64,000 bases of DNA. Source: a virus. Each line of letters begins with the position of its first letter. The first letter of the stretch is position 1. The position numbers and the translations under genes are program-made. The stretch is from the IMG/VR virus record IMGVR_UViG_3300042878_002532, positions 1-64,000 of that record; one strand, 5' to 3'. The notes under the pieces are model-generated. The model was not told the origin of the DNA. It searched no databases and was given only the letters and a program-made list of their open reading frames with translations. This document shows, in pieces, positions 1 through 59,922 of the stretch.

Positions 1-356
1 GCCATAGAAACCAACTTTTTCAAAAGTTCTTTCAAACTATGTGTTGGTAGGTCAAAAGAAGGTAAATCTGCATCAGGTTCTCTTATGTAGTCTACGAATC
101 TGCTGGCTTTGTTTTTTACAAAATCAATATAGTCTTTTAACTTTTTCTTTTGTTCCATGTCAAAGACGATGGTATCACCTAAGTCAAATTCTTTTTTGTC
201 TTTAAAATTGAAGGTTCTTTTGGGTTCTTCTTTTGTTAGGTCCCATTCGAATGTATTTGGTCCTGTTTGGTTCTCTGCTATGAGCAATATGCTCGCCACT
301 ATGGATTTGAATTCCCTTTCAAGCAAATGTTCGTTGTATCTATCAATTCTTTTCAT
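1..356 (-). CDS. Hypothetical protein, runs off the window start; CTS-like N-terminus (MKRIDRYNEHLLE)
   Basis: Manual translation from ATG at 356 stays open to the window edge; TAATATATA at 363-371(-). Not in the ORF track. Confidence 0.8.
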   Translation of the reverse strand, partial: MKRIDRYNEHLLEREFKSIVASILLIAENQTGPNTFEWDLTKEEPKRTFNFKDKKEFDLGDTIVFDMEQKKKLKDYIDFVKNKASRFVDYIREPDADLPSFDLPTHSLKELLKKLVSM

Positions 357-421
357 ATTCTATATATATTAAAAATGGATTTCTGAAAACTTAATATCAG
401 ATGTTTAATATAAGGCTGTAT

Positions 422-811
422 ATGGACAAGATATACACCGTTACTATATCATTTGAAGATTGGGAAAGTTCTTCTTTCAATACTGTTGGATTTTTTTCCG
501 ATAAGAAAATGGCTGAAGAAACAATGAAGAAGTGGAAAGATTTCTTTGAATATCATGACAAAGAGATATTCAATCTACAAAGAGATTCAAATGGAAACTT
601 TGAAAGTGATGAGATAGAAGATGAATGGTATTCTAGAGCATCTAAATATGAACAGATACGTTCGTATTCCGGAGTATCAATTGAAGAGTTTCCTTTTAAT
701 ACGGACATCTTCATAAAACAAACACAAATGCGTTCAAAGGAAATGCAGGGACTTGTTCAACAATGGGAAAGAGATTACAAAATAAAAAAAATAACAGACA
801 AAAATGAATAA
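422..811 (+). CDS. Hypothetical protein with C-terminal WERDYKIKKI tag
   Basis: ORF 401..811; the second Met (422) follows an AAAC..TATAA element; overlaps the nusA start. Confidence 0.75.
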   Translation: MDKIYTVTISFEDWESSSFNTVGFFSDKKMAEETMKKWKDFFEYHDKEIFNLQRDSNGNFESDEIEDEWYSRASKYEQIRSYSGVSIEEFPFNTDIFIKQTQMRSKEMQGLVQQWERDYKIKKITDKNE

Positions 812-2033
812 CTTATTCGAATCATTTACAGAGTTTAAAGATGCTAAGAACATCAACAGACAGGAAATAATGGGTATTTTAGAAGATGTCTTCAGAAACT
901 CACTTATCAAAAAATTTGGTAGTGATGAAAACTTCGACATAATCGTAAATACAGACCAGGGAGATTTAGAAATCTTCAGAAACAGAGAAGTAGTTGAAGA
1001 TGATTTTGAAGGATTTGACAAAAACCTTCATATCAAACTATCCGAAGTTATAAAGTTTGAACCAGACTTTGAGGTTGGTGAAGAGTTTACTGATGAAGTA
1101 AAATTGGCAGAGTTTGGTCATAGAACCATACTTGGAATCAAACAGAATCTTCTTTCTAAAGTAATGGATCTTCAAAAGAGTAACATCTACAACGAATACC
1201 AGAAAAGAATCGGTGAGGTAATCTCTGGTGAGGTTATCTTCGCAAACAAAAGAGAAACTATTGTTCAAGATTCTAATGGTAACGAACTTGTATTACCTAG
1301 AAACGAACAGATGCAGTCTGATTTCTTCAAAAAGGGAGACTATGTAAAAGCGGTCGTTGTTTCTGTAGAAAACGAACACAGACCGGTAGTCATTCTTTCA
1401 AGAAAGTCTGAGAGATTACTTGAACATCTTTTAGAGTTTGAGATTCCTGAGATAATGGATGGTCTTATAACAATCAAAGAGATTGCTAGAGTTGCTGGTG
1501 AAAAGTCTAAAGTTGTTGTAGAGTGTTATGATGATAGAATAGACCCGATTGGTATATGTGTTGGTTCAAAGGGTTCTAGGTTGTTTAGTATAAAGAAAGA
1601 GCTTAATGGTGAAAACATTGATATAATCAACTATACTCAAAATAATTCTTTACTTATACAGAGAGCTCTTAGTCCTGCGAAGTCTTCTTTAGTGAAGATT
1701 GACGAAGATACAAAGAAAGCAACGGTAACTATGAAAGGTGATCAGATTGCTTTGGCTATTGGTAAAGGTGGTGTTAATATAAAACTGGCACGTATTCTTA
1801 CTGGATATGACATAGAAGTATATAGTGAGGATGCGGAGGTTGAAGAAGACGTAATGATTGACGAGTTCCATGATGAGATTGACGAATGGATAATCAATGT
1901 ATTCAAAACGATAGGATTGGATAGTGCAAAAAGTATATTGGATCTTTCTATTGAAGAACTTGTTAAAAGAACAGATTTAGAAGAAGAAACAATAGAAGAA
2001 GTTCTAAAGATACTAGGATCGGAGTTTGAGTAA
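804..2033 (+). CDS. nusA: Transcription termination/antitermination factor NusA
   Basis: NusA N-domain, S1, KH1 (IDPIGICVGSKGSR), KH2 (ALAIGKGGVNIKLA) and acidic C-terminal HhH region; Bacteroidetes-like architecture. Confidence 0.95.
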   Translation: MNNLFESFTEFKDAKNINRQEIMGILEDVFRNSLIKKFGSDENFDIIVNTDQGDLEIFRNREVVEDDFEGFDKNLHIKLSEVIKFEPDFEVGEEFTDEVKLAEFGHRTILGIKQNLLSKVMDLQKSNIYNEYQKRIGEVISGEVIFANKRETIVQDSNGNELVLPRNEQMQSDFFKKGDYVKAVVVSVENEHRPVVILSRKSERLLEHLLEFEIPEIMDGLITIKEIARVAGEKSKVVVECYDDRIDPIGICVGSKGSRLFSIKKELNGENIDIINYTQNNSLLIQRALSPAKSSLVKIDEDTKKATVTMKGDQIALAIGKGGVNIKLARILTGYDIEVYSEDAEVEEDVMIDEFHDEIDEWIINVFKTIGLDSAKSILDLSIEELVKRTDLEEETIEEVLKILGSEFE

Positions 2034-2034
2034 T

Positions 2035-2397
2035 CTACTCCGGCTTTTTCTTGAAGCTAGAAGGTAGTATTCTATCTTCTTGCTTGAAGACTTTCAATAG
2101 AACGAATACAAGTGTTCCACCTGGAAGTAAAGAAATAGAAGTAAGTCCTAATACTTTAAGTATGTCTACGGATTGGTCTTTAATCAATTTAACTTCAGAT
2201 TCAGTAAGATTTCTTTTGTTACCATTTTCGTCTAACAACTGACCTTTTGCTGCTTTGTTTAGAAGTTCATAAACAACACGAGTTTCTTGTCCCTCACTTT
2301 TTAGTGCGGTGACAAAGTCGTTATATTTGACCTTCATTTTATCGACAAATTTTGTTACGTCTGACATGTATTCTTTTACGGATTTTATGTACCTCAT
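2035..2397 (-). CDS. LETM1-like domain protein
   Basis: LTESE..IKDQSVDILK....ISLLPGGTLV.VLLK....ILPSSF matches the LETM1/Mdm38 core pattern (LPGG...LPS.F). Confidence 0.6.
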   Translation of the reverse strand: MRYIKSVKEYMSDVTKFVDKMKVKYNDFVTALKSEGQETRVVYELLNKAAKGQLLDENGNKRNLTESEVKLIKDQSVDILKVLGLTSISLLPGGTLVFVLLKVFKQEDRILPSSFKKKPE

Positions 2398-2488: not shown

Positions 2489-2508
2489 TTGTTCAATAAA
2501 AACAAACT

Positions 2509-3261: not shown

Positions 3262-3264
3262 GCA

Positions 3265-7028: not shown

Positions 7029-7040
7029 CTCTTTTTTTTT
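7006..7040. terminator. Bidirectional intrinsic terminator
   Basis: AAAAAAGAGTCAAG-ATAA-CTTGACTCTTTTTT between convergent genes. Confidence 0.85.
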
Positions 7041-8658
7041 ATTTTTTATTTATAAGATTTTTAAACTTTTCAAATTTGGCAATAATCTTTTTGTTATCGT
7101 GATCAATCTGAATGTTGTTAGGTTCCATTGCTTTTCCGGCACCTGCCTCAACAAACTCATCTCTTGTAACATCTTTAGTATTACCTTCTTTGTCAGTTAT
7201 CTGATAGTCAAAGTTTTCGTTTGCCATTGGTTTTCCAAACTTATCTAATTTAGTAACATTTTCTGCACCGATTACTTTATTGTCCATCTCAGGTTCTCTA
7301 CCTTTTGATTCTGATGGATCTCCCCATTTTTGATTTAAAGTAAACTTAACTCCGGAAAGGTCATTGAATATTTTGTTTTTAAATAAGTCGATGAATCTAA
7401 GTCCTTGATAAGGAGCAACATCACATGTTCCAAAGATGTTTGAGATAGAACCGATACCACCGTGTCCACCAGAAACCGTAATCTCATCTTGACCGATTGT
7501 AGTGTCAGGGTCATGATATCCTAAATGTTGTTTGAAGTTTGTAAGTAAGCTTGTCATATAAACTCCTAAATCATCGATTGATTTACCATCTTTGTATAAA
7601 GGAAGATTTTCTGTTTGACCCATTTTTTTGTAAGCACATACTTGAAGAGTACCACCATATTGAAGTAATATGAATTTAGGTTCTGAATCAATCTTACCAT
7701 CTTTGAAGTCTCTTTCAACGATTGTTCTTGCTCTTAAAGCATTTGCCCAAGTTCCTGTTGGTACGAATACTAAATCTCCAAGTTTTAAATACCCGTCTAA
7801 TCTAAGTGCCCCACCTTTCCAGAACATACTGATAAGTTCTTGTTGAGAATTAAGTGTTTGTTTTGCACCAGTACCTCTTGTTCTTTTTTGCATCGTAGAA
7901 AGTCTCCATTCTGAATCTTTCATAAACTCTTTCTTACCATATTTAGTAGCGTTGTGCTCAGGGTAAAGTGCTTTCATTGTGTTAAAGATTGCATAGATAG
8001 AAGCATCTTTACAATTTGCAATAACTGCGATTAAAGTTTTTACATCCGATCTTTTTAAGAACTGATTAAAAGCTGCTCCAAATTCAAGTCTTTTCTTATC
8101 TGATTGTTTAATCTCTGCTAGATTAAAATCTAACAATCTTTGCCAATCAACACCATAGTCTTGGTATTTTGCAGCATCAATCATATCTATAACTGAAACA
8201 ATTAACTCATCTTGTGGAAGTCCTAATACAATACAAAGTGCTTCATATGCAGATGATGTTGCCAATTTTTTAACTGGTGAATCTTTATATTTGTCTAAAT
8301 CAGCAGCACTGAAAAGTCCGTGGTGGTCTAAGTAGTAATCTACTAACTCATCTCTTTCATCACCAGGCATGTTTGCGAAGTCAAGAACAATATTTATAAG
8401 TTTTGGATCAAGCGTAGTATATTTCCATCCTTCTGAATAATTTACAACACCGTACTTTACGATTTCGAATCCGTGGTCTAACAACCATTTCTTCATCTCG
8501 ATTGCACAGAAGATACCATCCATGTCATCGTGTGTATATAAAGCGACTTTCTTACCAATCTTTCCTTTTCCGATCCAATACTGCTCATCTGTAGAAGGAG
8601 TTCTAAGAGCTGCTTCCTCGTTGATATTGACCCAGTTGTTAAACTTTTTAATTCTCAT
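7039..8658 (-). CDS. DHH-family phosphoesterase-like protein with CTS-like N-terminus
   Basis: HDDMDG, LDF, LDHH and late SGGHGG motifs; begins MRIKKFNNWVNINE. Confidence 0.7.
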   Translation of the reverse strand: MRIKKFNNWVNINEEAALRTPSTDEQYWIGKGKIGKKVALYTHDDMDGIFCAIEMKKWLLDHGFEIVKYGVVNYSEGWKYTTLDPKLINIVLDFANMPGDERDELVDYYLDHHGLFSAADLDKYKDSPVKKLATSSAYEALCIVLGLPQDELIVSVIDMIDAAKYQDYGVDWQRLLDFNLAEIKQSDKKRLEFGAAFNQFLKRSDVKTLIAVIANCKDASIYAIFNTMKALYPEHNATKYGKKEFMKDSEWRLSTMQKRTRGTGAKQTLNSQQELISMFWKGGALRLDGYLKLGDLVFVPTGTWANALRARTIVERDFKDGKIDSEPKFILLQYGGTLQVCAYKKMGQTENLPLYKDGKSIDDLGVYMTSLLTNFKQHLGYHDPDTTIGQDEITVSGGHGGIGSISNIFGTCDVAPYQGLRFIDLFKNKIFNDLSGVKFTLNQKWGDPSESKGREPEMDNKVIGAENVTKLDKFGKPMANENFDYQITDKEGNTKDVTRDEFVEAGAGKAMEPNNIQIDHDNKKIIAKFEKFKNLINKK

Positions 8659-8684: not shown

Positions 8685-9629
8685 TTAAATTTTTTTGATG
8701 ATTATTCGTATATAATCATTACTAAAATCTTTATATGTTTGTTCAATTTTCCAATCATAGTCTTCTAATCGATTATTCGCCACTTCAATCACTTCTTTGA
8801 ACCTTTCGTCCTCTGTCATTTTAGTCAGTAATGATTGTATCATGTTTCTGTCTGCTTGTGTTCTTCCATATTCTGGAACGGATATAGCATCTGACTTAAC
8901 TCTTACCTCTATAAAAGGAAAGTGTTGGAATGTCATCTTAGGTGCAGACATTGGAGTGTCGAACATCAGGTTTCCATTTTGTCCAAGCATACTTTTAAAC
9001 TCTACGAATACTCTTAATCTTTCAGGAAATATGTCAAGGTCTTGTAAATCATAGAACATCTCTTTAACATCTTCTGGATATAGTCCATAATGTTTCATTG
9101 CGGTCTCATCATCTACTGATTCGTTTATATCTTCATCTTCGTCATCAAAATATACGTAGTCGTCAGGCTGTCTTTCTATTATGATAGATACGCAGTTTAC
9201 CTGGGCGATACCGTAATCTCCGTCTCTCTTTATCTTTCCTGTAGTATATGGTCTGTCTTTAACTACATGAACGTCATATACTTCTTCGAGATGTTCTTTC
9301 AGCTGGTTGAAGTATTCGTCTGGTATTTCTTTTTGATTGAAAGTATGCGAATTCTCATGCCTGTGTATTTCGGCATCTATATCGAAGTATACCTGTATTT
9401 TGTATATTCCTACTCCATCGAAAGACTCGTCTACTTTAGTCGATATGTCATCGCTTGTACCTATCATATAACGGTTTGGTGAATCTGATGCCATCTTTTC
9501 CGTTACGAAGTATTTAGCCTTTACTCCTTCGTCTGACAATATGTAGTCGAGTGCGGCGATGTCTTCTAACAAATCTTTTATTTTAGGTTTGTCGGTATTG
9601 AAGTCTTCATATAGTTTTAAGTATTTCAT
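8685..9629 (-). CDS. Hypothetical protein, CTS-like N-terminus, two-module
   Basis: MKYLKLYEDF; an internal DINES precedes a second module. Confidence 0.75.
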   Translation of the reverse strand: MKYLKLYEDFNTDKPKIKDLLEDIAALDYILSDEGVKAKYFVTEKMASDSPNRYMIGTSDDISTKVDESFDGVGIYKIQVYFDIDAEIHRHENSHTFNQKEIPDEYFNQLKEHLEEVYDVHVVKDRPYTTGKIKRDGDYGIAQVNCVSIIIERQPDDYVYFDDEDEDINESVDDETAMKHYGLYPEDVKEMFYDLQDLDIFPERLRVFVEFKSMLGQNGNLMFDTPMSAPKMTFQHFPFIEVRVKSDAISVPEYGRTQADRNMIQSLLTKMTEDERFKEVIEVANNRLEDYDWKIEQTYKDFSNDYIRIIIKKI

Positions 9630-27638: not shown

Positions 27639-27827
27639 CTATCGGTCTGAGAGAAGAATGTCGAGCTTTATTTCTCTAATGGATTCGACGACTTCTTTCT
27701 CCAAAGACTCTCTTATTATTCCTTGAGCTATTAGGTTCATTATATTCACACAGGATAAGTCAACCTCTATTCCTTTGTAGAAAACCTGCCCAGAATCTTC
27801 AATCTTCAGGTCTTTCATCCATATCAT
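27639..27827 (-). CDS. Small protein with C-terminal REIKLDILL tag
   Basis: 62 aa, overlapping the uvsW stop. Confidence 0.65.
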   Translation of the reverse strand: MIWMKDLKIEDSGQVFYKGIEVDLSCVNIMNLIAQGIIRESLEKEVVESIREIKLDILLSDR

Positions 27828-29994: not shown

Positions 29995-30648
29995 TTAGAA
30001 AGGCAGGTCGTGATTTTCTAAGTGTGTTTCTGGGTTGTAAATGTATAAAAATATTCTATCAATCTTATTAGGACTTTCTATACCATTTAGTTCAAACCAA
30101 GAATCTATGTTTGGTTTTGCTCCTTTGTAAAGAGTTTTTGGTAGCTTGCGGTCTCTTGAAAAACCATCGGAAGATATTGCTTCAAATATAAAGTGAAAAT
30201 CTGTATTATCAATCATTTCAAGCTTTGAGAAAGCATCCTTTATATCTTCTTTGACTTCTTCGATACTTTTATGTCTGAGTCCTTTCATCTTTATAATAAA
30301 CTCGCCGTTATTGTCGTTTGAATCTTCGTGTAGCTCATCCGTGTTGTCTATTAAGTCTCTTATACAATCTTTTATTGCATCCTCATCTGAGTCTATTCTA
30401 AACATTTTGAAGAAGTCTTCAAACGAATCTTCGTTTTTTACATTTCTCTGCCAATGGATCATGGAATCCGTGTTCATGCAAGAGATTAGATCCTTTAATC
30501 TTTTTCTAGTGTTAGAGGTGTATTTCTCGGATTGTAAAAGCTCTATAAGAGGTTTTACCTTTTCCCAATCTTCTGCAGATACCGTAGCATGTGGTATAAG
30601 TTCTTTATCCACATTAGATTCTGTTATTAGTTTTGAGAACTTTTTCAT
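29995..30648 (-). CDS. Hypothetical protein, CTS-like N-terminus (MKKFSKLITES)
   Basis: ORF 29995..30654; TAATATATA at 30654-30662 favours the Met at 30648. Confidence 0.7.
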   Translation of the reverse strand: MKKFSKLITESNVDKELIPHATVSAEDWEKVKPLIELLQSEKYTSNTRKRLKDLISCMNTDSMIHWQRNVKNEDSFEDFFKMFRIDSDEDAIKDCIRDLIDNTDELHEDSNDNNGEFIIKMKGLRHKSIEEVKEDIKDAFSKLEMIDNTDFHFIFEAISSDGFSRDRKLPKTLYKGAKPNIDSWFELNGIESPNKIDRIFLYIYNPETHLENHDLPF

Positions 30649-31910: not shown

Positions 31911-32222
31911 ATGAAAACTAAAGTAGAAATAAACGGATACGAGATTGAGATCGAAGAAAGAGATGGTCTTATTTCTGTAACAGCAACTTTTGAAGACGAA
32001 GTAGTAGAAGAATTCCAAATCGAGACTGAAGAAGGTCAAGGTGATGAAGAAGGTCAAGAAGACGTTCAAGGATTTGACGAATTTGGTCAAGACGAAGAAG
32101 AAGATTTTGGTCAAGATGACGAAGAAGGTCAGGATGACGAAGATGAAGATGAAGAAGAAGGTCAAAACGAAATGGAAGGAAAATTAGAGTCTTTTCAAGC
32201 TTTCATCAACAAAAAAAAATAA
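31911..32222 (+). CDS. Very acidic small protein (prohead core/scaffold-like)
   Basis: EEGQ/FGQD repeats; TAATATATA at 31881; C-terminal KLESFQAFINKKK. Confidence 0.7.
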   Translation: MKTKVEINGYEIEIEERDGLISVTATFEDEVVEEFQIETEEGQGDEEGQEDVQGFDEFGQDEEEDFGQDDEEGQDDEDEDEEEGQNEMEGKLESFQAFINKKK

Positions 32223-32234: not shown

Positions 32235-33290
32235 ATGATTAAAAAGTTTAATCAATACATAAAGGAGGACGTTGCAGGAGAAAAACAACTTCTGTATTAT
32301 GCGTTTGACTGGGATGACAATATATTGAGCATGCCAACGGTTATACACATGGACCATCTTATCGATGGTGACTGGGTTCCTGAGGATGTTTCTACCGCAG
32401 ACTTTGCAAAAGTAAGAGGTGATAGTGAGAACTGGAGAGTAATCAACGGTGATCCTGCTGCAGCTTTTTCTGAATTTAGAGATAGTGGACCAAGAGGTGA
32501 TGTTGCTTTCTTGGAAGATACTAAAAATGCAGTCTCTGCACAAAGATTTTCTCCAGCGTGGGAAGATTTCGTAGAGTGTTTAGTAAACGGATCTCTTTTC
32601 GCTATAATAACGGCGAGAGGACATGAAGCACCATCAATGAAAAAAGGAGTTGAGTGGATAATAGACAATGTTCTTTCTGAAGAACAACTATACGAAATGT
32701 ATAACAACCTATTGAAGTTTGCTTATTTATTCAGACATAACAAAGAGTATGATAGAATATTAAAAGGGCAACCATCTGCACATTCACTTGTTCAACTTTA
32801 TTTAGAAAATTGTGAGTTCGTGGGTGTTTCTGCACCATCAAGAGGTGGTTCACCATCTGATCCAGAACAAGCTAAAGAAGATGCACTTCTTCTTTTCATG
32901 GATAGAGTAAACAAATTTGCGGCAAGTGTTGGATATAAAGCCAAAGTTGGATTCTCAGATGATGACTTAGGTAATGTTAGTCATATAGAAAACCTTGCAG
33001 ACAACTTACACCACGAGCAGTTTCCAAACTTATTATTATTTGTGGTTAAAGGTACAAAATATCCTGAAGACATTACTAAGAAAGTAGTTACTTTTGACGA
33101 GTTCAGAGGTGAAATGAAAGAAAGTCAAGATCCTATGACGACAAGCACTATGTCTATGCAAACTCCTAACGCTGCTATGTCGGCTGGTTTAAATAGTAAA
33201 GACCCTTTTGTGACTAGAGCCATTGGTCAGTCAAAACTTTTAACAAAAATGTCTAAAAACACTTTTGGAAAAAGTAAAAAAAAAGATTAG
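32235..33290 (+). CDS. HAD-superfamily phosphatase-like protein with CTS-like N-terminus
   Basis: FDWDDNI, ITARG, K, GFSDDD; begins MIKKFNQYIKE. Confidence 0.75.
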   Translation: MIKKFNQYIKEDVAGEKQLLYYAFDWDDNILSMPTVIHMDHLIDGDWVPEDVSTADFAKVRGDSENWRVINGDPAAAFSEFRDSGPRGDVAFLEDTKNAVSAQRFSPAWEDFVECLVNGSLFAIITARGHEAPSMKKGVEWIIDNVLSEEQLYEMYNNLLKFAYLFRHNKEYDRILKGQPSAHSLVQLYLENCEFVGVSAPSRGGSPSDPEQAKEDALLLFMDRVNKFAASVGYKAKVGFSDDDLGNVSHIENLADNLHHEQFPNLLLFVVKGTKYPEDITKKVVTFDEFRGEMKESQDPMTTSTMSMQTPNAAMSAGLNSKDPFVTRAIGQSKLLTKMSKNTFGKSKKKD

Positions 33291-33361: not shown

Positions 33362-35212
33362 ATGAAACTAAACAGATACTTAGACTTTATATCAGAAGGT
33401 ACCGGTAGTGGTAAAATGATGATATTCTACTCGGATGACCTGAGAGAGCTTTTCACACACATAGCGATGAGCGAGAGTTCCGCAAAAAATGTGGCAAGAG
33501 TACTTTTGGAAGTTGAAGACAACGACACCGTGAAAGACACTTATACTTTGATAGACAAAACCGACAAGAACGACATGATTTCGTATGTTCAGACAAGTAG
33601 GTTCTACAGAGAGTATCCTAACGGAATCTCGAGTCCGGATTTGGAAAAAGAAAGAGGTTACTCCATGAAGAGTAGCAAGTTCTGGAAAAGTGGAAGAACT
33701 CCTAACTACGGAATAGGAAGATGGGTAAGACACATATTCAACGACGTTCGTCAGACTCCTATAAAGAACGAAGATCTTGAGAGTTTTGTGAACGCCTACA
33801 AGTCTACCTACGATACAATGGCCAAACGTTCTGAAAAATTTAAATTGGTAAAAGGTGAGGATATAAGATACTGGTATTTAGAAGACAGATACGAAGAAGT
33901 GAGTGGACAGCTTGGAAACTCTTGTATGAGATACAAAAGATGTCAGTCATATCTGGATATCTATGTCGAGAATCCGGAATCGTGTAGTCTGCTTATATTG
34001 AAAGGTAATGATCCAGACAAGATAGCAGGACGTGCACTTATCTGGACTATACACGAAGGTCCAGGTGTTGCTGGAAGAAGGTTCATGGACAGGATCTACA
34101 CGATAAAGGACAGCGACAAGATTCTTTTTGAGGCATACGCGAAAGAGAACGATATTCTTAGATCACAATCTTATACGTACAAAATAAAGGTTAAGGAAGG
34201 TAGGTACGACTACTATCCTTATATGGACACGCTTACGTGCTATGATTATGAAAAAGGGATTCTATCTTCTTCTCTTGATGGCGAAGATATTTTAGGTCTA
34301 CAAAACACGGATGGAACCGCATCGGACAACGAAGGAAGAGTTTGGAGTGAGTATCACGGTGAGTATATAGACGAGGATGACGCCAGATATTGTGAAGACG
34401 TTGACGGTCCCGTGCACTATGAGAGCACGGTTTGGTTAGAATATTTAGACATATATGTTACCGATAATGCAGATACGGTTTATAGCGAATATTTTGATGG
34501 AAGCTACTATAGTGAAGATGCCGTTCGTTCGGAATGTATGGATGACTATCTAAAAGCAAACGATAGTGATGTTATAGAGATTAAAACTAGTGCGGATGGA
34601 GACACCGATTATTGTGTTTTAGATCGTAAGGACCTATATATTGAGGTAGATGACGAATATTACTATAGAAAGAATTATATATTAGATCCTTACACAGGTG
34701 AATATCATTTCGGTGATGAGAAGGTTGATGGTGTGAAATATATCAAATATTTAGAGAATAAGTTAGAAGAAGAACTTGAAGTAAAAGAGAAATATACTCT
34801 AGCAGGTGGAAAGTTTGATTTAGAAAAATATAGAACCGATCTTAAAAAGATGTTTGTCGAATATGTTCCTACCGATGACTTCATAAAAGAAGTGAAGACA
34901 AAGGGTGGTGATAATAGTTATTACTATCATTTACCTGGACTATATGCTTGGATAATAAGAGACCAGATGAATTATGGAACCATAAATGCAGGTTATCAAT
35001 CAAGTGCAGCATTGTCTAGCTACAAGAAACTTTTATTTGATATTTTGGAAGAGATGTCTGAAGAATTTGATAAAGAAAATATTAAATTATGGTACGATGA
35101 TAAGTTTTCACGCTCTTGGAATCTAAGATCCGTATTTAAAATATTTGACAATATAGACATCACTAAATTTCCTACGGAAATATACAAAAGAATATTCTTT
35201 TTTAACATATGA
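33362..35212 (+). CDS. Conserved phage protein (SCM..GRALIW..MDRIY..YPYMDT), CTS-like N-terminus
   Basis: 616 aa; MKLNRYLDFISE; TAATATATA ends 4 nt before the ATG. Confidence 0.75.
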   Translation: MKLNRYLDFISEGTGSGKMMIFYSDDLRELFTHIAMSESSAKNVARVLLEVEDNDTVKDTYTLIDKTDKNDMISYVQTSRFYREYPNGISSPDLEKERGYSMKSSKFWKSGRTPNYGIGRWVRHIFNDVRQTPIKNEDLESFVNAYKSTYDTMAKRSEKFKLVKGEDIRYWYLEDRYEEVSGQLGNSCMRYKRCQSYLDIYVENPESCSLLILKGNDPDKIAGRALIWTIHEGPGVAGRRFMDRIYTIKDSDKILFEAYAKENDILRSQSYTYKIKVKEGRYDYYPYMDTLTCYDYEKGILSSSLDGEDILGLQNTDGTASDNEGRVWSEYHGEYIDEDDARYCEDVDGPVHYESTVWLEYLDIYVTDNADTVYSEYFDGSYYSEDAVRSECMDDYLKANDSDVIEIKTSADGDTDYCVLDRKDLYIEVDDEYYYRKNYILDPYTGEYHFGDEKVDGVKYIKYLENKLEEELEVKEKYTLAGGKFDLEKYRTDLKKMFVEYVPTDDFIKEVKTKGGDNSYYYHLPGLYAWIIRDQMNYGTINAGYQSSAALSSYKKLLFDILEEMSEEFDKENIKLWYDDKFSRSWNLRSVFKIFDNIDITKFPTEIYKRIFFFNI

Positions 35213-35772
35213 AAAACGTAAAGACATATGAAGGATTCCTAGACTTCTTCAAAAGAAAACCAAAAAGTACAGAACCAGTTTATATGGATGATATAAAAGA
35301 GTGTGGGTACGACTTTTTACATGACAACAGAATAGCCACTTACGTCGATGGATCAACTCCAGGTGGTATTGGTCATGACTTTGATGATATTTTTGGAATA
35401 AAAAGAGGAATAGATTTGACACACGACTATGAAGATTTAATGAACGATACTATGAATCTACCACGTAACGTAAGAGGAAACATGATGATTATACAATTTC
35501 GATATTCTTTATACGAAGAAACTACAAGTAGAGAAAATTATAAATACGTTTCGAGAAATGAAATGTCTGAGATGTTGAAAGACTTCGCAGATAAGTTAGA
35601 GACATTGGATTGTAAGGCGAGTTTTTATCTTGCTTGGGGTTATGACGAAGGACGTACAGATGACAAAGAATACAAAAACATTGATAAAGTTATAGACGTT
35701 ATATACAAAACTGATAGAACTCCATTGGTAACGATGAAAATAACTGCACCTTCTGATATAATAGTCGATTAA
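35209..35772 (+). CDS. Hypothetical protein, CTS-like N-terminus (MKNVKTYEGF)
   Basis: ATGA-coupled to the upstream gene. Confidence 0.75.
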   Translation: MKNVKTYEGFLDFFKRKPKSTEPVYMDDIKECGYDFLHDNRIATYVDGSTPGGIGHDFDDIFGIKRGIDLTHDYEDLMNDTMNLPRNVRGNMMIIQFRYSLYEETTSRENYKYVSRNEMSEMLKDFADKLETLDCKASFYLAWGYDEGRTDDKEYKNIDKVIDVIYKTDRTPLVTMKITAPSDIIVD

Positions 35773-38303: not shown

Positions 38304-38891
38304 TTAAAACTTTCTTTTGAATGTTCTGTTTTTGTAGCTTTTAGACTCTCCAATCTGGTCGATATCTACTGCTTGAGCTTTAAGAGCTTGAGCTTCTGGA
38401 TCTAAACCTGTTTCAGTTTTATCAGAACCTCTTTCAAACTCACCTTGAGCTTGTGCTCTTTTTTGAGCTTGTGCTTGTACTCTTCTTTCTTTTTTACCTT
38501 GAGCTTCTGCTTGAGCTTGTGGGTTGTTAAGGTAATCAACAACTTTTTCAACGTCGTCAGTTTTCAAATCGATTCCGTCTACTCTAAATTGTCCTGTTTC
38601 AGATGGTTGATCAATCTCATGTCCATCATGATTGATAACATTTCTTTCAACTGAAGCACCTAACAATTCTGCTAATCCTTCTAATCCACCTTCTACTGCG
38701 TCTACGTCTCCATATGCTAATGGATTGTCTCTTACACCTGGTTCTTCTGTAGGAATAACAGATGGTCTAGCCGGTCTTGGCGTTGTATCTGGTCTTGTTG
38801 GTGCTGGAATCGTCTCAGGAGAAACGCCTGGTCTTGACGGTGCCGGAGCATTTTCATTTGTTTTTACAAATTGATTATATTTTTTAATCAT
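38304..38891 (-). CDS. Pro-rich/QAQ-repeat protein with CTS-like N-terminus
   Basis: MIKKYNQFVKTNE; TAATATATA at 38914(-). Confidence 0.75.
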   Translation of the reverse strand: MIKKYNQFVKTNENAPAPSRPGVSPETIPAPTRPDTTPRPARPSVIPTEEPGVRDNPLAYGDVDAVEGGLEGLAELLGASVERNVINHDGHEIDQPSETGQFRVDGIDLKTDDVEKVVDYLNNPQAQAEAQGKKERRVQAQAQKRAQAQGEFERGSDKTETGLDPEAQALKAQAVDIDQIGESKSYKNRTFKRKF

Positions 38892-38940: not shown

Positions 38941-39429
38941 TTACTCTTCATCTTGATTTTCTAACTCACTAACTACATAGTCGATAAAACTATCAAGTTC
39001 ATATTCATAACCTGAACAAAAGTCAAAGACATCAAAATCTTTTCCGTTTATCTGAACTCCAAAGTCTGGAGATGTGAATGTTGTTTCTGGATAGTAAACG
39101 ATTCTTCCTTCAAGTCTTCCACTTATTGTTTTCCCGTTTTCTATAAGATCTGGACAAGTAAGTGTTCCTAAGTAATGTATCTCATCTCCATATTCTTCTA
39201 TAGAGTCAAATTCAAACTTGAACATTCCAGCATAGTCTTCGAAGACCTTTTCACTTTCTTCTTTAGTAAGTGCATTATGTACTGCTTCTTCACCGCCGGA
39301 TTTATGTGCATCCAAAAACTCTTTCTCTAATGAAGTCAATGATTTCATACCATACTTAGATATTTTGTCTAGTATGTCGTCGACTCGTTGTGCGGTCGAA
39401 TAACCTTCGTATCTCATTAGATGTCTCAT
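38941..39429 (-). CDS. Protein with CTS-like start and DUF6576-like domain
   Basis: MRHLMRYEGY followed by VDDILDKISKYGMKSLTSLEKEFLD. Confidence 0.75.
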   Translation of the reverse strand: MRHLMRYEGYSTAQRVDDILDKISKYGMKSLTSLEKEFLDAHKSGGEEAVHNALTKEESEKVFEDYAGMFKFEFDSIEEYGDEIHYLGTLTCPDLIENGKTISGRLEGRIVYYPETTFTSPDFGVQINGKDFDVFDFCSGYEYELDSFIDYVVSELENQDEE

Positions 39430-43492: not shown

Positions 43493-44020
43493 ATGATAAA
43501 TAAATGGAATGAATTCATAAGAGAGTTTGTTGAATCAACTGGATTGATTGATGCAAAAATGCAAGAGCTCAAAGATTTGATAGATGGTATGTCCGATGGA
43601 CAGAACCTTATATACGAATGGGAGAACAAAGACGACCATCAGTTATTGGTTAATTTTACTAGCGGTGATCTTTCTCTTAGATATGAGTTTGACATTGATG
43701 ATTTACACGTTACAAAAATTGCTGGTGATACTGTAGACTATAAGACTGATGTTGAGTCTATGGAAGAAGGATTAGATCTTATTGAAAAGGATATTCAATC
43801 CATCTTAGGTATTGATGAAAAAAAGACAAATAATATGAAATATTTGAAAAAATTTGAGTCTTATAATTTTGAAGACTTTACACATTCCGATATGGAAGAT
43901 GTAAAAGATTTATTAGAAGAAGGGTTAACTGCCGAAGAAATCGCAAATGAATTAGACTTTGATGTAAACAAAGTTAAACAAATAATCTCTTCTATTAGAA
44001 AGAGTGAAAAATTTAATTAA
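43493..44020 (+). CDS. CTS-bearing protein with an internal second CTS and C-terminal HTH
   Basis: MINKWNEFIRE; internal MKYLKKFESY at 43835; GLTAEEIANELDFDVNKVKQII. Confidence 0.75.
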   Translation: MINKWNEFIREFVESTGLIDAKMQELKDLIDGMSDGQNLIYEWENKDDHQLLVNFTSGDLSLRYEFDIDDLHVTKIAGDTVDYKTDVESMEEGLDLIEKDIQSILGIDEKKTNNMKYLKKFESYNFEDFTHSDMEDVKDLLEEGLTAEEIANELDFDVNKVKQIISSIRKSEKFN

Positions 44021-44029: not shown

Positions 44030-44239
44030 ATGAAAAATTTATTACTATTTGAAGACTACAATGAAGTTCTTATATTAGAAAAAAATATCCCGACTAACCC
44101 AGAACTATGGGCAAAGTGCAAAGCTTCTGCCAAATCAAAATATGATGTTTGGCCATCAGCATATGCATGTGGTTTTGCTGCTAAAAAATATAAAGCAGAA
44201 GGTGGTAAATGGAAAAAAGAAAAGAAAAAGAAGAAATAA
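44030..44239 (+). CDS. Small basic protein (PSAYA..YK..GG motif), CTS-like start
   Basis: MKNLLLFEDY..ILEK; PTNPELW..WPSAYA. Confidence 0.75.
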   Translation: MKNLLLFEDYNEVLILEKNIPTNPELWAKCKASAKSKYDVWPSAYACGFAAKKYKAEGGKWKKEKKKKK

Positions 44240-44532
44240 TGGAATATTTATTATTATTTGAACAATTCATATTAGAAGAAAAGAAACCAAAAGGTGGTCT
44301 TGATAAATGGTTCAAAGAAAAGTGGGTTGATATATCTAAGACTAATGCTGATGGAACACATCCACCATGTGGTAGAGATGATGCTGATAAAGGATCTTAT
44401 CCAAAGTGTAGAAAGGTAAGAGTAGCTGCAAGGATGACTGATAAAGAGAAAAAAGCTTCAACTAGAAGAAAAAGAAAAGTTGAAAAAGAAGGCTCTAAAG
44501 GAAGTGGTAGAAAACCAAATTACGCTAAATAA
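44239..44532 (+). CDS. Small basic protein (GGLDKWFKEKWVDI..PCGR..YPKCR; DUF5872-like), CTS-like start
   Basis: TAATG-coupled start MEYLLLFEQFILEE. Confidence 0.75.
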   Translation: MEYLLLFEQFILEEKKPKGGLDKWFKEKWVDISKTNADGTHPPCGRDDADKGSYPKCRKVRVAARMTDKEKKASTRRKRKVEKEGSKGSGRKPNYAK

Positions 44533-48466: not shown

Positions 48467-49195
48467 TTATTTGTAGGCTAAATTTATTGTCTCACCTGCG
48501 TATTTTCCGGTGAGTGCATTTTGGTACTCTACTATTTTATAGCTCACCATCTTCGAACCCTGTTCTGCTAGATTTAACAAATATTGTATTGATTGATTTC
48601 TTTCTTCACCAGGTGTCATATTCTTTATCTCTTCTGCGTTCTGCTGAACAACTTTCATCGCTGAGTTTGCCAAGTCTGTCACTTGTTTTCCAAAGATTGG
48701 ATTGTCTACCGATCCTCCTTTTTTCAATTGAAACAAATATGCTTGTGCTTTCATAAGAAGACCATCATCGTATTTTCCGGATCCTTCGGACTGAAGTCTT
48801 TTCAGGAATCCAATTGCGGCATCCATTACTCCTTCCGGTGGTGTAGCTTGTTTAGTCGCTGCTGCAGAACATAGAACAAAGAATAAAACTATTAGAATAA
48901 GTGTTATGATTATAGTTCTAAATAAGGCAGGGTGCTTTTCTTTGAAACTTTTTATCTTATCCAGTACCTTGTCGAAGAACTTTTTGACGAGACTAAGTGC
49001 CATCAATCCTTTCTCCATCAGTGTCAACATAAGATTTCTTATAGAATCGTTTATCTTTTCAAAGAAGTCTCCTATCTTTTTCATCCAATCCGTAAATCCT
49101 TCGTTTATAGAATCAAAATTACATAACTCATCAAGAGCTGCAAAAGTTCTTTGTTCATTTATCGAAAAGGATTCAAAATTGTTTAGATGTTTCAT
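48467..49195 (-). CDS. CTS-bearing protein with an internal TM helix
   Basis: MKHLNNFESFSINE..SINEG; TM TIIITLILIVLFFVLC. Confidence 0.75.
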   Translation of the reverse strand: MKHLNNFESFSINEQRTFAALDELCNFDSINEGFTDWMKKIGDFFEKINDSIRNLMLTLMEKGLMALSLVKKFFDKVLDKIKSFKEKHPALFRTIIITLILIVLFFVLCSAAATKQATPPEGVMDAAIGFLKRLQSEGSGKYDDGLLMKAQAYLFQLKKGGSVDNPIFGKQVTDLANSAMKVVQQNAEEIKNMTPGEERNQSIQYLLNLAEQGSKMVSYKIVEYQNALTGKYAGETINLAYK

Positions 49196-49808: not shown

Positions 49809-50168
49809 TTATAGGCTAAAATCTTCAAAGCCTTTTATGTTTTCATCATCTCTATGTCTAGCATCATGTTCTGAGTGAGATGATTCTGGTCCACCTAATA
49901 GTGGTTTTTCTTCGTGATGTTCTTCTTCATGCTCTTCTGAATGACCTGCAAGAAAGTTGAATACTTCTTCTACATCATCCTTAGATGTTGCAATGTGGTC
50001 TAATGCCCAGTTGTGGCCGTTTGTAAGCATAGCGTCAACTTCTGCTTCATCCATTTCTAACATCTCATCAACTAATCTTTTGATTGTTTTAAGATTACCA
50101 AAGAACATATAATTTTGAGGACCACCATCATGGTCTTCTTTAAATAGTTTAAATTTTTTGATTTCCAT
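49809..50168 (-). CDS. Acidic His-rich protein, CTS-like at both ends
   Basis: MEIKKFKLFKE ... IKGFEDFSL. Confidence 0.7.
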   Translation of the reverse strand: MEIKKFKLFKEDHDGGPQNYMFFGNLKTIKRLVDEMLEMDEAEVDAMLTNGHNWALDHIATSKDDVEEVFNFLAGHSEEHEEEHHEEKPLLGGPESSHSEHDARHRDDENIKGFEDFSL

Positions 50169-50179: not shown

Positions 50180-51340
50180 TTATTTTAGAATGTTTACTAC
50201 TTCTGGGTAGTATTTGCATATATTTTGATTCTTTCCTTCATAAGGAATGGCTGAAAGTGCGTATCTCATAGCATTTAATCTTCCAATCTTTTTGTCGTTT
50301 GAGTTTATTATAACCCAAGGTGTAGTCCTACTTGATGTAAGGTTGAACATCTGATTTTTGTAGTGTCCGATTATCTCCCATTTATCAACAACTTTGGCGT
50401 CATTCGGTGAGAACTTCCAGTATTTCAAAGGACTTTGTTGTCTTAAATCGAATCTTTTTAGTTGTTTTTCTTTGGTAATAGAGAACCAGAACTTAATAAG
50501 GTGAAGACCTTGTTTCTTTATCATTTTCTCTTCCCAATCTACCACTTTTTCCATGAAGTCTTTGTACTGATCTTCTGTACAATAACCCATTGCTGGTTCT
50601 ACTACTGCTCTGTTGTACCAAGATCTATCAAAGAATACTATTTCTCCTTCTTTAGGCATGTGTGCCTCATATCTAGCGAACCAGTTTTCTTTCTCTTCTG
50701 GAGTTGGAAGTCCTAAAGCAACTACTCTGAATCCTTTTGGATTTAAGTATTCGACGAATCTTTTTATTGTAGAACCTTTTCCTGCAGAGTCTCGTCCTTC
50801 GAATACTATAGCTATTCTCTTACCGTTCTTCAGAACCCATTCTTGAAGTTTCATAAGCTCTACTTGTATCTGATATTTCTCTGATTCGTATTCTTTTCTA
50901 GTAAGTATAGATCTCTCACCTTCGAACTCATCAAAGTGTTGAGCCTGAGCACCAGTTTTAATAACTGATATCCTGTTATCTATAGATTTGGCGAAGTCAT
51001 CAAACTGTTTTCTTATGTTACTTTTGGTATCTCTTCTTTTGAGTTCCATAAGTTGATTTATCTTCCTAAGAAGTGTGTCGATGTTTAAGTCTTGTACGAC
51101 CTCTGGAGTGAACTCGTTGTTAAGTTCTCTCATTATTATATCTACTTCGATTTTTTCAAAGGATTTGTATTCTACTTTGTTTGTTTGAAAGTTGTAGACA
51201 ATATTGTCCAATATAGAACTTTTATACTCTCCAAGTCTTGTCAGTATGTTCCTTTTTATCTGTTCGATATTTTCGGGATCCATCTTGTCAATCCTAAGCT
51301 CTTCTTTTATAAAATCCAAGAATTTACGTAAATTCTTCAT
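50180..51340 (-). CDS. ppk2: Polyphosphate kinase 2 with N-terminal CTS-bearing extension
   Basis: FEGRDSAGKG, FDRSWYNR, PLKYWKFSPND; start MKNLRKFLDFIKEE after TAATATATA at 51361(-). Confidence 0.93.
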   Translation of the reverse strand: MKNLRKFLDFIKEELRIDKMDPENIEQIKRNILTRLGEYKSSILDNIVYNFQTNKVEYKSFEKIEVDIIMRELNNEFTPEVVQDLNIDTLLRKINQLMELKRRDTKSNIRKQFDDFAKSIDNRISVIKTGAQAQHFDEFEGERSILTRKEYESEKYQIQVELMKLQEWVLKNGKRIAIVFEGRDSAGKGSTIKRFVEYLNPKGFRVVALGLPTPEEKENWFARYEAHMPKEGEIVFFDRSWYNRAVVEPAMGYCTEDQYKDFMEKVVDWEEKMIKKQGLHLIKFWFSITKEKQLKRFDLRQQSPLKYWKFSPNDAKVVDKWEIIGHYKNQMFNLTSSRTTPWVIINSNDKKIGRLNAMRYALSAIPYEGKNQNICKYYPEVVNILK

Positions 51341-53394: not shown

Positions 53395-53475
53395 AAACAT
53401 GTAACATCATGATATACTAATAACTAATATTTGGTTTTTCTATTTGGATATATAAATCAAAATAAAAATATCAGT

Positions 53476-54291
53476 ATGTTACTAAAAGTAGGATCAAAAG
53501 GAGATGACGTAAAGTCACTTCAGGAAAAGCTGGGACTTACAGCTGACGGCTCGTTCGGACCTGGAACAGAGAAAGCCGTAAAAGAATGGCAAGCAAAAAA
53601 CGGATTGACGGCAGACGGAGTTATCGGTGATAAAAGCTGGCAACTTTTGGCTTTATTCGGAACAAAAAAAGAAGAGGTTGTAATACCTGCAAGTGAATTT
53701 AAGCTTGAGGCATTAAAAGGACATCTTCCGGATTCAGTAATCGCTCAGATTCCTGACACAGCAAAAAAATTCAACATTACAAATGTATTGAGACTATCTC
53801 ACTTCTTGGCACAATGTGGTCATGAGTCTGGTGGATTCAAAGCGGTTTCTGAAAACCTAAACTATTCTTCTGACGGATTGAAAAAAATATTCGGAAAGTA
53901 TTTCCCTGGTGATACTACGGCTTATGCTAGAAACCCGGAAAAGATTGCTTCTAAAGTTTATGCAAACAGAATGGGTAATGGAGACGAAAGTTCTAAAGAA
54001 GGATTCAAATTCAGAGGTAGAGGATATATCCAGTTGACCGGAAAATCAAACTATCAAGGATTCACAAAATTCATTGGAGAGGATTGCGTAGCAAATCCGG
54101 ATTTAGTAGCGACTAAATATCCATTGGCTTCTGCGGCATTCTTTTTTGACTCTAATAAACTATGGTCTATTTGTGATAAAGGTGCAGATGATGCTACCGT
54201 AACTGCAGTTACTAAAAGAGTGAATGGTGGTACTATTGGATTACCGGATAGAATAAAACATTTCAAAGAGTTTTACAACTTACTTAAATAA
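53476..54291 (+). CDS. Endolysin: peptidoglycan-binding domain plus GH19 domain
   Basis: LKVGSKGDDVKSLQ..DGSFGPGT..ADGVIG; HFLAQCGHESGG; FRGRGYIQLTG. Confidence 0.92.
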   Translation: MLLKVGSKGDDVKSLQEKLGLTADGSFGPGTEKAVKEWQAKNGLTADGVIGDKSWQLLALFGTKKEEVVIPASEFKLEALKGHLPDSVIAQIPDTAKKFNITNVLRLSHFLAQCGHESGGFKAVSENLNYSSDGLKKIFGKYFPGDTTAYARNPEKIASKVYANRMGNGDESSKEGFKFRGRGYIQLTGKSNYQGFTKFIGEDCVANPDLVATKYPLASAAFFFDSNKLWSICDKGADDATVTAVTKRVNGGTIGLPDRIKHFKEFYNLLK

Positions 54292-58264: not shown

Positions 58265-58283
58265 AAAAATAAGATAAAGATAT

Positions 58284-59627
58284 ATGCCAACTCAAAACGT
58301 AGGTACACTAGTAGGGGCTGCGATAAGGCCAATAGATGATGCAATGCCGATTGCTTCTGCATTTTCTTTTGAAATAAATGGAGGACATCACCAAGTTGCC
58401 ACTTTGGTTGCTAGAGATGCCATAATTGTTCAAAGAAGACAATGGGGGATGTTGTGTACGGTTTATAACGATTCAACTTCTACAAACAATGCAACATACC
58501 AACTTAAATATGGACATAACAATGGTAGTACCAATACTATGGATAACGCAAACTGGGTAGTTTTCTCAGGTGGTGGCGGTGCCGGTGGAAGTGCAAACTG
58601 GGTAGATCCTGTTCTTTCTGTTACAATGAGTACTCCTGGAATTTCGGCAGACGGAGATAGATATTTGGTTGGATTGGATGAGACTGCTTCGTTATCTGGT
58701 AGTTTTGCCACACTTACTAATACTGGATATGTTGGAAACTTAGTTGGTGGATATATTGCTGAATATAACTCTAGTATAAGCAATTGGGTAACTACATTAC
58801 CAACCGATGGGATGACTCTAAGAGTCAATGATCAAGACAACTCATTTTATAGATATGAAGGAACTTATTCTACTGGTCAATGGTACAAAGAAAGAGTCAA
58901 TCAAGTAAGATATCTTTCTGCGATTAGTGCAAATGGTGTTGATTATACTATAACCACTAATGATTTTTTTGAATACTCTACTGAAGTTGTATATTTAGTT
59001 CAGTTTGGAACTGCTAACTCAGGAAGTACAGCTTCATTAAATATAAATGGTTTAGGTCAAACAAACATGAGAAAACAGAACGCACTTGGACTTTCTGATT
59101 TTTCTAAAAACGATTTGAATATTGTTGGAGTTTACAATCTTATATATGATGGAACTATTTTTAGAGTTGATCAACAAGCCGGAGAAGGTGGTGCTTTTAC
59201 TTTAAAGTATAGGATTATCGATTCTGAAAGAATTGAAGTTCCTGCATATTCTGAATATTTACTTTATGGTGATTTAGAAGTAAATGGTATATTAGATATC
59301 AATGCTACTGGAAAAGTTGTTTTGGTAAATGGTGGATTGAATGTAAATGGTGGTACGGTTTCTAACTCAGGAAATATAGAATTTGTAACCGTTCCTCAGG
59401 CAGCATCGACTGGAGTTGCTGGATATGTTCCAAAATGGGCATCTACTACTGCAATATCTGCAACTTCTTCTATACAGGATAGTGGAACAAAAGTTACTTT
59501 GAGCTCTGTTTTGAATTTGACACCAAGTAGTCAACCTGCAACTGCTGCGGCTGGAGATATATACTTTGATAGTGGTACTAATAAGTTAAGAGCATATGAT
59601 GGTTCTGGTTGGAACGATCTTTGGTAA
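58284..59627 (+). CDS. Virion structural/tail fibre-like protein
   Basis: Beta-rich; C-terminal AAGDIYFDSGTNKLRAYDGSGW fibre-type motif. Confidence 0.6.
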   Translation: MPTQNVGTLVGAAIRPIDDAMPIASAFSFEINGGHHQVATLVARDAIIVQRRQWGMLCTVYNDSTSTNNATYQLKYGHNNGSTNTMDNANWVVFSGGGGAGGSANWVDPVLSVTMSTPGISADGDRYLVGLDETASLSGSFATLTNTGYVGNLVGGYIAEYNSSISNWVTTLPTDGMTLRVNDQDNSFYRYEGTYSTGQWYKERVNQVRYLSAISANGVDYTITTNDFFEYSTEVVYLVQFGTANSGSTASLNINGLGQTNMRKQNALGLSDFSKNDLNIVGVYNLIYDGTIFRVDQQAGEGGAFTLKYRIIDSERIEVPAYSEYLLYGDLEVNGILDINATGKVVLVNGGLNVNGGTVSNSGNIEFVTVPQAASTGVAGYVPKWASTTAISATSSIQDSGTKVTLSSVLNLTPSSQPATAAAGDIYFDSGTNKLRAYDGSGWNDLW

Positions 59628-59660
59628 TAAAAAAAGTCCTTCATTTGAAGGACTTTTTTT
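59628..59660. terminator. Bidirectional intrinsic terminator
   Basis: AAAAAAAGTCCTTCA-TT-TGAAGGACTTTTTTT. Confidence 0.9.
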
Positions 59661-59922
59661 ATGATATTATTTTAATAATATTTTCTAAGGAAAAACCATC
59701 TAATGGTTTGCCACCATTTTTAAGGTAGTCTCCATAGATGTTGTTATAGTCATCTATAGTATAGAACTTTGAATCTAAGTCACAAAATATAACTGTAGTA
59801 TCGTGTGCATTCACCGTTTTATTCTGAAGTCCTGTCTCTCCGTATCCTGGTCCCATAGGTCCAATCAGTTCGGTTCCGTTTACTTCTTCTTTTATGAAAT
59901 CTTCAAATCTTTTAATCATCAT
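59659..59922 (-). CDS. Small protein, CTS-like start (MMIKRFEDFIKEE)
   Basis: ORF 59659..59928. Confidence 0.7.
   Translation of the reverse strand: MMIKRFEDFIKEEVNGTELIGPMGPGYGETGLQNKTVNAHDTTVIFCDLDSKFYTIDDYNNIYGDYLKNGGKPLDGFSLENIIKIIS

Follow-up and report, generated by a model that had tools for sequence, protein, structure and literature searches.

An N-terminal peptide shared by unrelated proteins of a huge phage of the Mahaphage group resembles the capsid-targeting propeptide of phage T4

Why would many unrelated proteins of a single phage begin with the same short peptide? The question is raised by the first 64,000 bases (here called the window) of the 113,293-bp virus record IMGVR_UViG_3300042878_002532, in which an initial annotation listed 18 N-termini that share two aromatic residues three positions apart, usually followed by [ILV]-x-E. 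That annotation read the shared peptide as a tag resembling the capsid-targeting sequence (CTS) of phage T4, cut off after [ILV]-x-E by a protease of the gp21 type, and this reading holds as far as the sequence reaches: the head module, a scan of T4, the residues conserved in the tag and its coupling to [ILV]-x-E all agree with it. We conclude that the shared N-terminus is probably a T4-type capsid-targeting propeptide. To our knowledge, huge phages of 500-735 kb come solely from metagenomes, and a role has yet to be given to the majority of their genes.

All 18 listed N-termini were located in the sequence at the positions claimed for them, and 14 of them are strong tags, starting on the minus strand at 8658, 9629, 38891, 39429, 49195, 50168, 51340 and 59919 and on the plus strand at 32235, 33362, 35209, 43493, 44030 and 44239. 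The remaining four fared less well: those on the minus strand at 356, 2397 and 30648 are weak variants, and the one at 43835 begins at an internal methionine. In six open reading frames (ORFs), the tag starts at a downstream ATG and not at the start of the longest ORF. Enrichment was therefore measured with a rule blind to the motif, taking the first ATG of each of the 121 ORFs of the 113-kb contig and shuffling the same N-termini 1000 times.

The pattern M-x(3-5)-[FYW]-x-x-[FYW] was observed in 20 of the 121 first-ATG N-termini, compared with 6.3±2.3 in the shuffled N-termini (maximum 14 in the 1000 shuffles), and it occurred at 3.1% of internal methionines and at 3.3% of any internal positions, which served as controls. 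When [ILV]-x-E was added to the pattern, the count was 8/121 against 0.6±0.8. Enrichment over shuffled AT-rich N-termini, a check that the initial annotation had itself named, is thus present. A de novo motif search by expectation maximization also returned the tag, in the form K-[LI]-[KR]-K-[FY]-E-[ED]-F, with a log-likelihood ratio of 180 versus 120-135 for shuffles. The third position before the first aromatic, which lies outside the search pattern, was I or L in 19/29 and 25/31 tags. Moreover, a matrix built only from the tags of the related genome LR745206 placed N-termini at nine of its ten top hits among 34,512 positions of the contig. Two AT-rich control phages, Lak-A1 (4/104 ORFs tagged) and PTm1 (3/57), were at background, and AT-richness by itself is therefore insufficient to generate the motif.

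Approximately 25 of the 121 ORFs on the contig are tagged, a few of these being false positives and a few being weak members. About ten further tags lie beyond the window, on the plus strand at 72704, 74000, 93503, 94273, 94949, 95609, 98847 and 101013 and on the minus strand at 82313 and 85756. The bodies of the tagged proteins belong to different families or to none, so that a short N-terminal peptide is what these unrelated proteins have in common. As had been claimed for replication genes, the helicase at 27824-29431 has no tag.

The tag is coupled to a candidate processing site. In three phages, [ILV]-x-E starts directly after the second aromatic in 6/29, 9/31 and 7/23 tags, compared with a background of 1-2%, meaning that its adjacency to the aromatic pair is 15-30 times the background. 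Within 25 residues, [ILV]-x-E is found in 65-74% of the tags versus 22-36% in the background. We distinguish two classes: in class A tags, [ILV]-x-E follows the aromatic pair at once, and in class B tags (M-K-x-L-K-x-Y-E-x-F) the site comes some residues later.

The CTS of the T4 internal proteins IPI, IPII and IPIII has been known since 1996, reportedly through work by Mullaney and Black. Reviews of this peptide are available (PMC9026906, PMC3012670). Truncation and suppressor studies found the first 10 residues of IPIII to be enough for packaging; residues 4 and 7 are the main determinants of targeting and residues 8 and 10 those of processing, and Asp at position 10 blocks processing and does not block targeting (PMC9026906). 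Residues 4/7 and 8/10 of IPIII are the aromatic pair and the I-x-E whose positions are conserved in the huge-phage tags, and they may have the same roles here. We scanned T4 blindly with a matrix made from 60 tags (contig plus LR745206) over the 237 ORFs in bases 1-150,000 of the 168,903 of T4. The genes ipIII, ipII and ipI ranked 3, 4 and 6 of the 237, so the matrix derived from the huge phages finds the internal proteins of T4. The top hit of the scan, above ipII and ipIII, was T4 gene 61.1, which lies on the minus strand, encodes 54 residues and is annotated as hypothetical.

The contig also carries the head module that such a mechanism would use, namely a gp20-like portal, a gp21-like protease, a scaffold rich in [ILV]-x-E and a gp23-like capsid protein with a propeptide. 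The protease and the scaffold are parts of the same 700-residue ORF (110172-112274 of the record, plus strand). Its first 279 residues are the gp21-like prohead protease (phrog_207, E=2e-29 over residues 2-279; Pfam PF03420 in homologues), and in a pairwise comparison with T4 gp21 the segments V-x-N-R-N-x-R-x-Y and GE-x-x-HP were aligned. The equivalent gene of PTm1 was annotated by its depositors as ‘prohead core scaffolding protein and protease’. In the scaffold-like C-terminal extension, a 14-residue unit is repeated ten times in tandem (DNA period 42, 9.7 copies) ahead of an acidic stretch, and the core of the tag is found in every repeat as Y-x-E-Y-[ILV]-A-E. The ORFs of the contig contain 28 copies of the strict 7-mer [FYW]-x-x-[FYW]-[ILV]-x-E versus 6.3±2.4 expected, with eight copies at N-termini, 11 in the protease extension (10 of them in the tandem repeats) and nine elsewhere. 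LR745206 shows the same distribution, and 120 homologues of the extension have 11-15 strict copies each.

The start of the capsid protein also lies on the contig (112360-113292). It was assigned to the gp23 type via its relative (E=2e-8) and has the propeptide motif K-W-x-P-x-L-E; its residues 35-43, Y-A-E-F-H-S-I-N-E, have the same ending as the tags that start at 49195 and 8658. In T4, gp22 has 20 [ILV]-x-E sites, and the stretch of gp23 that ends at E65 reads F-x-x-F-L-T-E. T4 gp23 is cut after residue 65. A complex prediction for the scaffold repeats (residues 285-450 of the protease ORF) with a tagged 86-residue protein gave a score of 0.00, which weighs neither way.

Our model suggests that the short amphipathic tag, [IL]-[KR]-x-[FYW]-x-x-[FYW], would dock its protein on the scaffolding core while the prohead assembles, this core being the C-terminal part of the gp21-like protease-scaffold fusion. 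Because an aromatic face is common to both, the tag could possibly take the place of a scaffold repeat. The prohead protease would then cut after [ILV]-x-E, at once in class A and some residues later in class B, as in T4 IPI, and the same type of site would be cut in the cargo, in the scaffold repeats and in the propeptide of the capsid protein. The scaffold peptides would leave, the mature cargo would stay in the head with the DNA, and it would probably enter the host along with the DNA. The sequences themselves show the motif, its conservation and modularity, its agreement with the functional residues of T4 and its return in the scaffold repeats and in the capsid-protein propeptide; docking, cleavage, virion retention and injection are inferred.

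To which phages does this apply? The record has a CheckV completeness of 17%, which indicates a genome of several hundred kb, and a guanine-plus-cytosine (GC) content of 33-38%. Its portal (105469-107181; phrog_213, E=2e-57) is, by tblastn, 82% identical to that of LR745206 (634,780 bp), 79% to that of LR756502 and 47% to that of LR756501 (735 kb); identity falls to 31-32% for Lak phages and to approximately 30% for the Tenacibaculum phage PTm1, and some 2,400 T4-like phages are more distant. The contig is collinear with LR745206, where 78 of the 121 ORFs have a match. On the portal similarity and this collinearity, the phage therefore belongs to the ‘Mahaphage’ huge phages and has a head module of the T4 type. 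The repeat region of the protease-scaffold ORF has more than 3,700 matching proteins in the databases, some of them on contigs of 200-520 kb, and the group is therefore abundant in public metagenomes.

The tag is conserved in this group. In LR745206, 31 of 180 ORFs are tagged, and orthologues retain the tag while the linker behind it drifts; LR756501 has 19 tagged ORFs of 90, and scaffold repeats are present there too. Conservation of the aromatics at i and i+3 extends from the tags to their orthologues and to the 120 + 120 homologues listed for two of the tagged proteins. By contrast with the repeats of the present phage, the extension in Lak-A1 is acidic and has no repeats, and PTm1 has different repeats; tags are at background in the former and not above it in the latter. 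LR756500 is intermediate in this pattern. The co-variation of repeats and tags over the lineages is suggestive only.

Which proteins carry the tag? The enzymes named in the initial annotation were borne out, each by evidence of its own kind: a polyphosphate kinase by Pfam, a HAD phosphatase by fold and motifs, and, less firmly, a DHH-like phosphoesterase by motifs and transitive Pfam matches. The tagged polyphosphate kinase 2 (PPK2) has 386 residues and is encoded at 50180..51340 on the minus strand. Its class A tag ends in I-K-E at residue 13 (LR745206-only matrix score 16.2), and a further ~130 residues precede the PPK2 domain at residues 147-372. The match to Pfam PF03976 (E=1.1e-75; 254.6 bits against a cut-off of 22.3) covers positions 3-228 of the 229 in the profile, which makes the predicted PPK2 identity of ORF 50180-51340 firm. 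The LR745206 orthologue is 66% identical, and the candidate shared promoter TAATATATA lies 20 nucleotides (nt) upstream of the gene.

The tagged HAD-superfamily phosphatase (351 residues; 32235..33290, plus strand) has the best matrix score of all, 21.1, and a class A tag that ends in I-K-E at residue 11. HAD motif I occupies residues 25-27, and 50 homologues show no change at D25, at D27, in an I-I-T-A-R-G stretch or in S-D-D-D (residues 241-244). Neither Pfam at E≤1 nor a PDB sequence search gave anything useful for this ORF, and Foldseek found no matching PDB structure at E≤0.001. A wide structural search with VIA-align, however, returned HAD hydrolases for most of the top 50, with a modest similarity to the 3'-phosphatase domain of T4 Pnkp (Z=9.2; root-mean-square deviation 3.0 Å over 130 residues). 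In the AlphaFold (AF2) model, residues 1-14 have a predicted local distance difference test score (pLDDT) below 50, and the core is folded and confident. Among the 120 metagenome homologues listed of 4,250 matches (55-96% identity), 97 have a class A tag, approximately 20 have a class B tag and two are untagged, so the two classes interchange within one enzyme family; the linker from the tag to the catalytic D-x-D varies in length. Beyond the window, at 101013-101696, a tagged protein consists of a stand-alone class III nucleotide (adenylate/guanylate) cyclase domain (Pfam E=2e-21).

The most informative family for the boundary of the tag is that of the DHH-like phosphoesterase (539 residues; 7039..8658, minus strand, with TAATATATA upstream). 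Its motifs are DxD at residues 45-47, DHH at 111-113 and GGH at 397-399. No direct match was found by Pfam at E≤1 or by PDB sequence search, and PF01368 is matched by distant phmmer homologues (E 3e-7 to 8e-4), of which one, at 30.5 bits, exceeds the cut-off; in the Atlas, DHHA1 is the lead, at 0.91. The tag ends in I-N-E-E, and a conserved mature N-terminus follows. Among 35 cluster representatives that share an S-A-P-R-I-P start, 11 begin M-S-A-P-R-I-P and are untagged, and in 20 of the 24 extended representatives the extension ends in E directly before S-A-P-R-I-P. The tag is thus a detachable unit whose boundary lies exactly at the predicted cleavage point.

Would the tag then be a cleavage site and nothing else, a propeptide that holds enzymes in an inactive state, or labels proteins for removal, until the head matures, with neither retention nor injection? 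The coincidence of the tag boundary with the start of the untagged homologues shows the cut point and is silent on retention, and the motif does fall on the likely cut sites of the scaffold repeats and of the propeptide of the capsid protein. It is also established that scaffold fragments exit the T4 head after cleavage, but folded enzymes of 350-1100 residues are unlikely to leave a closed shell in this way. In addition, a site that served for cutting only should not be missing nearby in one third of the tags, and in T4 the same aromatics carry the targeting and the tagged proteins remain in the head (PMC9026906). We therefore regard a function in cleavage only as unlikely.

It is similarly improbable that the tag addresses its proteins to another structure or partner, such as the tail or baseplate hub, a chaperone or an intracellular compartment, with the likeness to the T4 CTS being convergent. 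Short amphipathic helices are common docking peptides, and several tagged genes adjoin tail genes (for example at 81771-85756, upstream of the sheath gene); the motif, however, turns up again in the scaffold of the head and in the propeptide of the capsid protein and not in tail proteins, the tag matrix finds the T4 internal proteins, and the coupling to [ILV]-x-E suits a protease of the gp21 type. The idea that the motif is a by-product of AT-rich codons or of a translation-start preference, with no function at the protein level, draws on the AT-rich codons of K, N, F, Y, I and E in a genome of 33-37% GC, but it is refuted by the shuffle, which abolishes the motif in the same N-termini, and by the control genomes, the AT-rich Lak-A1 and PTm1 being at background, and it also fits poorly with the exchange of F/Y/W, I/L/V and K/R at fixed positions and with a tag that is present or missing as a whole unit in homologues, leaving it a negligible chance.

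We thus favor a capsid-targeting propeptide, and several observations weigh against it. Around one third of the tags have no [ILV]-x-E within 25 residues. The pairwise match between the protease and gp21 is short (E=0.006), and the scaffold repeat has no basic residues before its aromatic pair and scores low with the full matrix. LR756504 has scaffold repeats yet only 4 tagged ORFs of 53 in the 50 kb sampled, and the link between repeats and tags is therefore not strict; their co-occurrence is, in any case, based on few lineages. The association of the tag with a shared promoter is weak as well. The initial annotation had tied the tagged genes to TAATATATA, and this part of it stood up poorly: the sequence lies within 60 nt upstream of 10 of 25 tagged and 19 of 96 untagged ORFs (p=0.06). 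One gene in five would be a very large cargo set, and some of the tagged proteins may have another fate. Finally, packaging, cleavage and injection are deduced from sequence in this phage and in every related one.

The promoter-like sequence TAATATATA is over-represented on the contig, with 40 occurrences against 11 expected. We dropped the idea that it signals late, cargo-specific expression, since the helicase, structural genes and other untagged genes also lie behind it and the association with the tag has p=0.06.

About 20% of the genes of this phage and of its Mahaphage relatives are tagged, including those for PPK2, the HAD phosphatase, the DHH-like phosphoesterase and the nucleotide cyclase. 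A fuller proposition is that one tag loads approximately a hundred head proteins per genome, among them PPK2, the cyclase, the Pnkp-like HAD phosphatase and the DHH-like esterase, and that this tag mimics a scaffold repeat, co-assembles with the scaffold and is released by the same protease cut. Taken as a whole, this is possible, and we hold it with somewhat less than even confidence.

The other tagged ORFs of the window differ in the strength of the tag. At the left edge, an ORF truncated by the end of the window (3..356, minus strand) has a variant tag with H at the second aromatic, followed by L-L-E; its LR745206 orthologue has the canonical form, Y-x-x-F-L-L-E. The 120-residue ORF at 2035..2397 (minus strand) is a weak candidate with V at the first aromatic; its start is unsupported by the matrix, and it has no orthologue in the LR745206 stretch. 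A third weak variant heads a 217-residue protein (29995..30648, minus strand) with the T4 spacing, having F4, L7 in place of the second aromatic and I-T-E at residues 8-10. A weak P-loop match is all that this protein gave, and a search of LR745206 found no orthologue.

Two tagged genes overlap on the plus strand. The first encodes 616 residues (33362..35212), with a tag ending in I-S-E at residue 12, a matrix score of 14.2, TAATATATA 4 nt upstream and no Pfam or PHROG match; the start of the second, encoding a 187-residue class B protein (35209..35772; score 6.3), overlaps the stop of the first. On the minus strand, TAATATATA precedes both a 195-residue class A protein (38304..38891; score 18.7), whose LR745206 neighbour R_48069_48608 bears the same tag, and a 162-residue class B protein (38941..39429; score 9.0), which has DUF6576 at residues 13-42 and an orthologue that keeps the tag. 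A further class B protein, of 314 residues (8685..9629, minus strand), scores 7.8 with the LR745206-only matrix, and its first [ILV]-x-E ends at residue 22. In the 242-residue protein at 48467..49195 (minus strand; score 7.2), the tag ends in F-x-S-I-N-E, as does the capsid-protein propeptide. The 119-residue protein at 49809..50168 (minus strand; score 15.1) has its tag at the second ATG of the ORF. The 86-residue protein used in the complex prediction (59659..59919, minus strand; score 17.3) is of class A, with I-K-E ending at residue 11, and the aromatic pair and I/N-x-E are kept in 120/120 of its metagenome homologues listed.

The ORF at 43493..44020 (plus strand, 175 residues) has two tagged modules. 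Its N-terminus has a class A tag (17.9), and a second tag, of class B (6.4), starts at the in-frame internal methionine at 43835, with I-D-E directly before it. No stop separates this methionine from the start of the ORF, and the LR745206 orthologue (109 residues) corresponds to the first module alone, so the arrangement reflects either a gene fusion or an internal start. Directly downstream, the DUF5872 domain is split over two translationally coupled ORFs with overlapping stop and start codons (44030-44532, plus strand), and each half has a tag of its own. The N-terminal half (positions 1-46) is in a basic protein of 69 residues (44030..44239; isoelectric point, pI, 9.6), and the C-terminal half (48-109) in one of 97 residues (44239..44532; pI 9.9), whose tag ends in I-L-E at residue 13 and scores 14.2. 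If both halves are loaded, they could reassemble in the head. Most of the remaining tagged proteins match no family: a PHROG search with ten tagged proteins gave no head, packaging or internal-protein family, and PPK2 alone was matched, weakly, to a kinase family.

Related sequences are also seen at C-termini. The last ~60 residues of the DHH-like ORF (7039-7200, minus strand) match, at the C-terminus, many proteins of 60-760 residues that otherwise differ, and a tag-like K-F-x-x-F is present at the C-termini of the DHH-like ORF and of the ORFs at 31911-32222 and 53431-54291. This suggests a second shared module, predicted to be C-terminal. Beyond the window, at 74437-77638, three adjacent genes beside the tail sheath gene have the 7-mer at or near the C-terminus, all of them kept in LR745206, and the product of 76697-77638 ends exactly in F-x-x-Y-I-K-E. 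These C-terminal 7-mers may be C-terminal propeptides or docking sites; in T4, Alt and gp21 undergo C-terminal processing (PMC9026906).

The packaged cargo of these phages, enzymes included, can probably be read from their genomes. If this is true, around one fifth of the genes of a huge phage would be given a place and a time, first in the head and then in the host before phage gene expression, and the injected ‘first-minute’ proteome of uncultured huge phages would become directly legible. The host would receive ready-made enzymes for energy, nucleotide handling and signalling, whereas T4 delivers small anti-restriction proteins only. The tag core in the scaffold repeats provides a testable idea for the binding partner of the T4 CTS, which is still unsettled, and the tag could serve as a packaging handle for engineering.

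How does this tag compare with known systems? Encapsulin and bacterial microcompartment cargo peptides offer an analogy only: there too a short, terminal, amphipathic peptide sends unrelated enzymes into a shell, but those shells are of another lineage and bring nothing to a second cell, and their peptides sit mostly at the C-terminus and are not taken off by a protease. Closer are phiKZ, 201phi2-1 and SPN3US, giant phages with a gp21-related protease that cleaves many head proteins after Glu (PMC5694885, PMC10052503; PMC9026906); their propeptides, however, are long and dissimilar and define no short common address, in contrast to the one short tag shared here. A literature search, which was not exhaustive, found no paper linking Mahaphages or huge phages to a capsid-targeting sequence.

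The closest relative is the T4 CTS. Both are N-terminal peptides of around ten residues on unrelated proteins, with aromatics at i and i+3 and then [ILV]-x-E, and the late site of class B resembles that of IPI, where the first [ILV]-x-E ends at residue 19. The differences are of form and of scale. The huge-phage tag is 1-3 residues longer, with a conserved I/L and basic residues ahead of the aromatic pair, and the tagged proteins, with a median pI of 5.4 versus 5.6 for the rest, are not more basic, unlike the T4 internal proteins. It heads approximately 20% of the genes, compared with three in T4 and around ten internal proteins with CTS-like leaders across the T-even phages (PMC12373910), and its predicted cargo, read here from the genes, includes enzymes of 350-1100 residues. 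Unlike in T4, the scaffold is fused to the protease and contains 10-15 tandem copies of the core 7-mer of the tag. The logic therefore appears to be that of T4, yet greatly expanded, extended to enzymes and with the core of the tag repeated in the scaffold itself.

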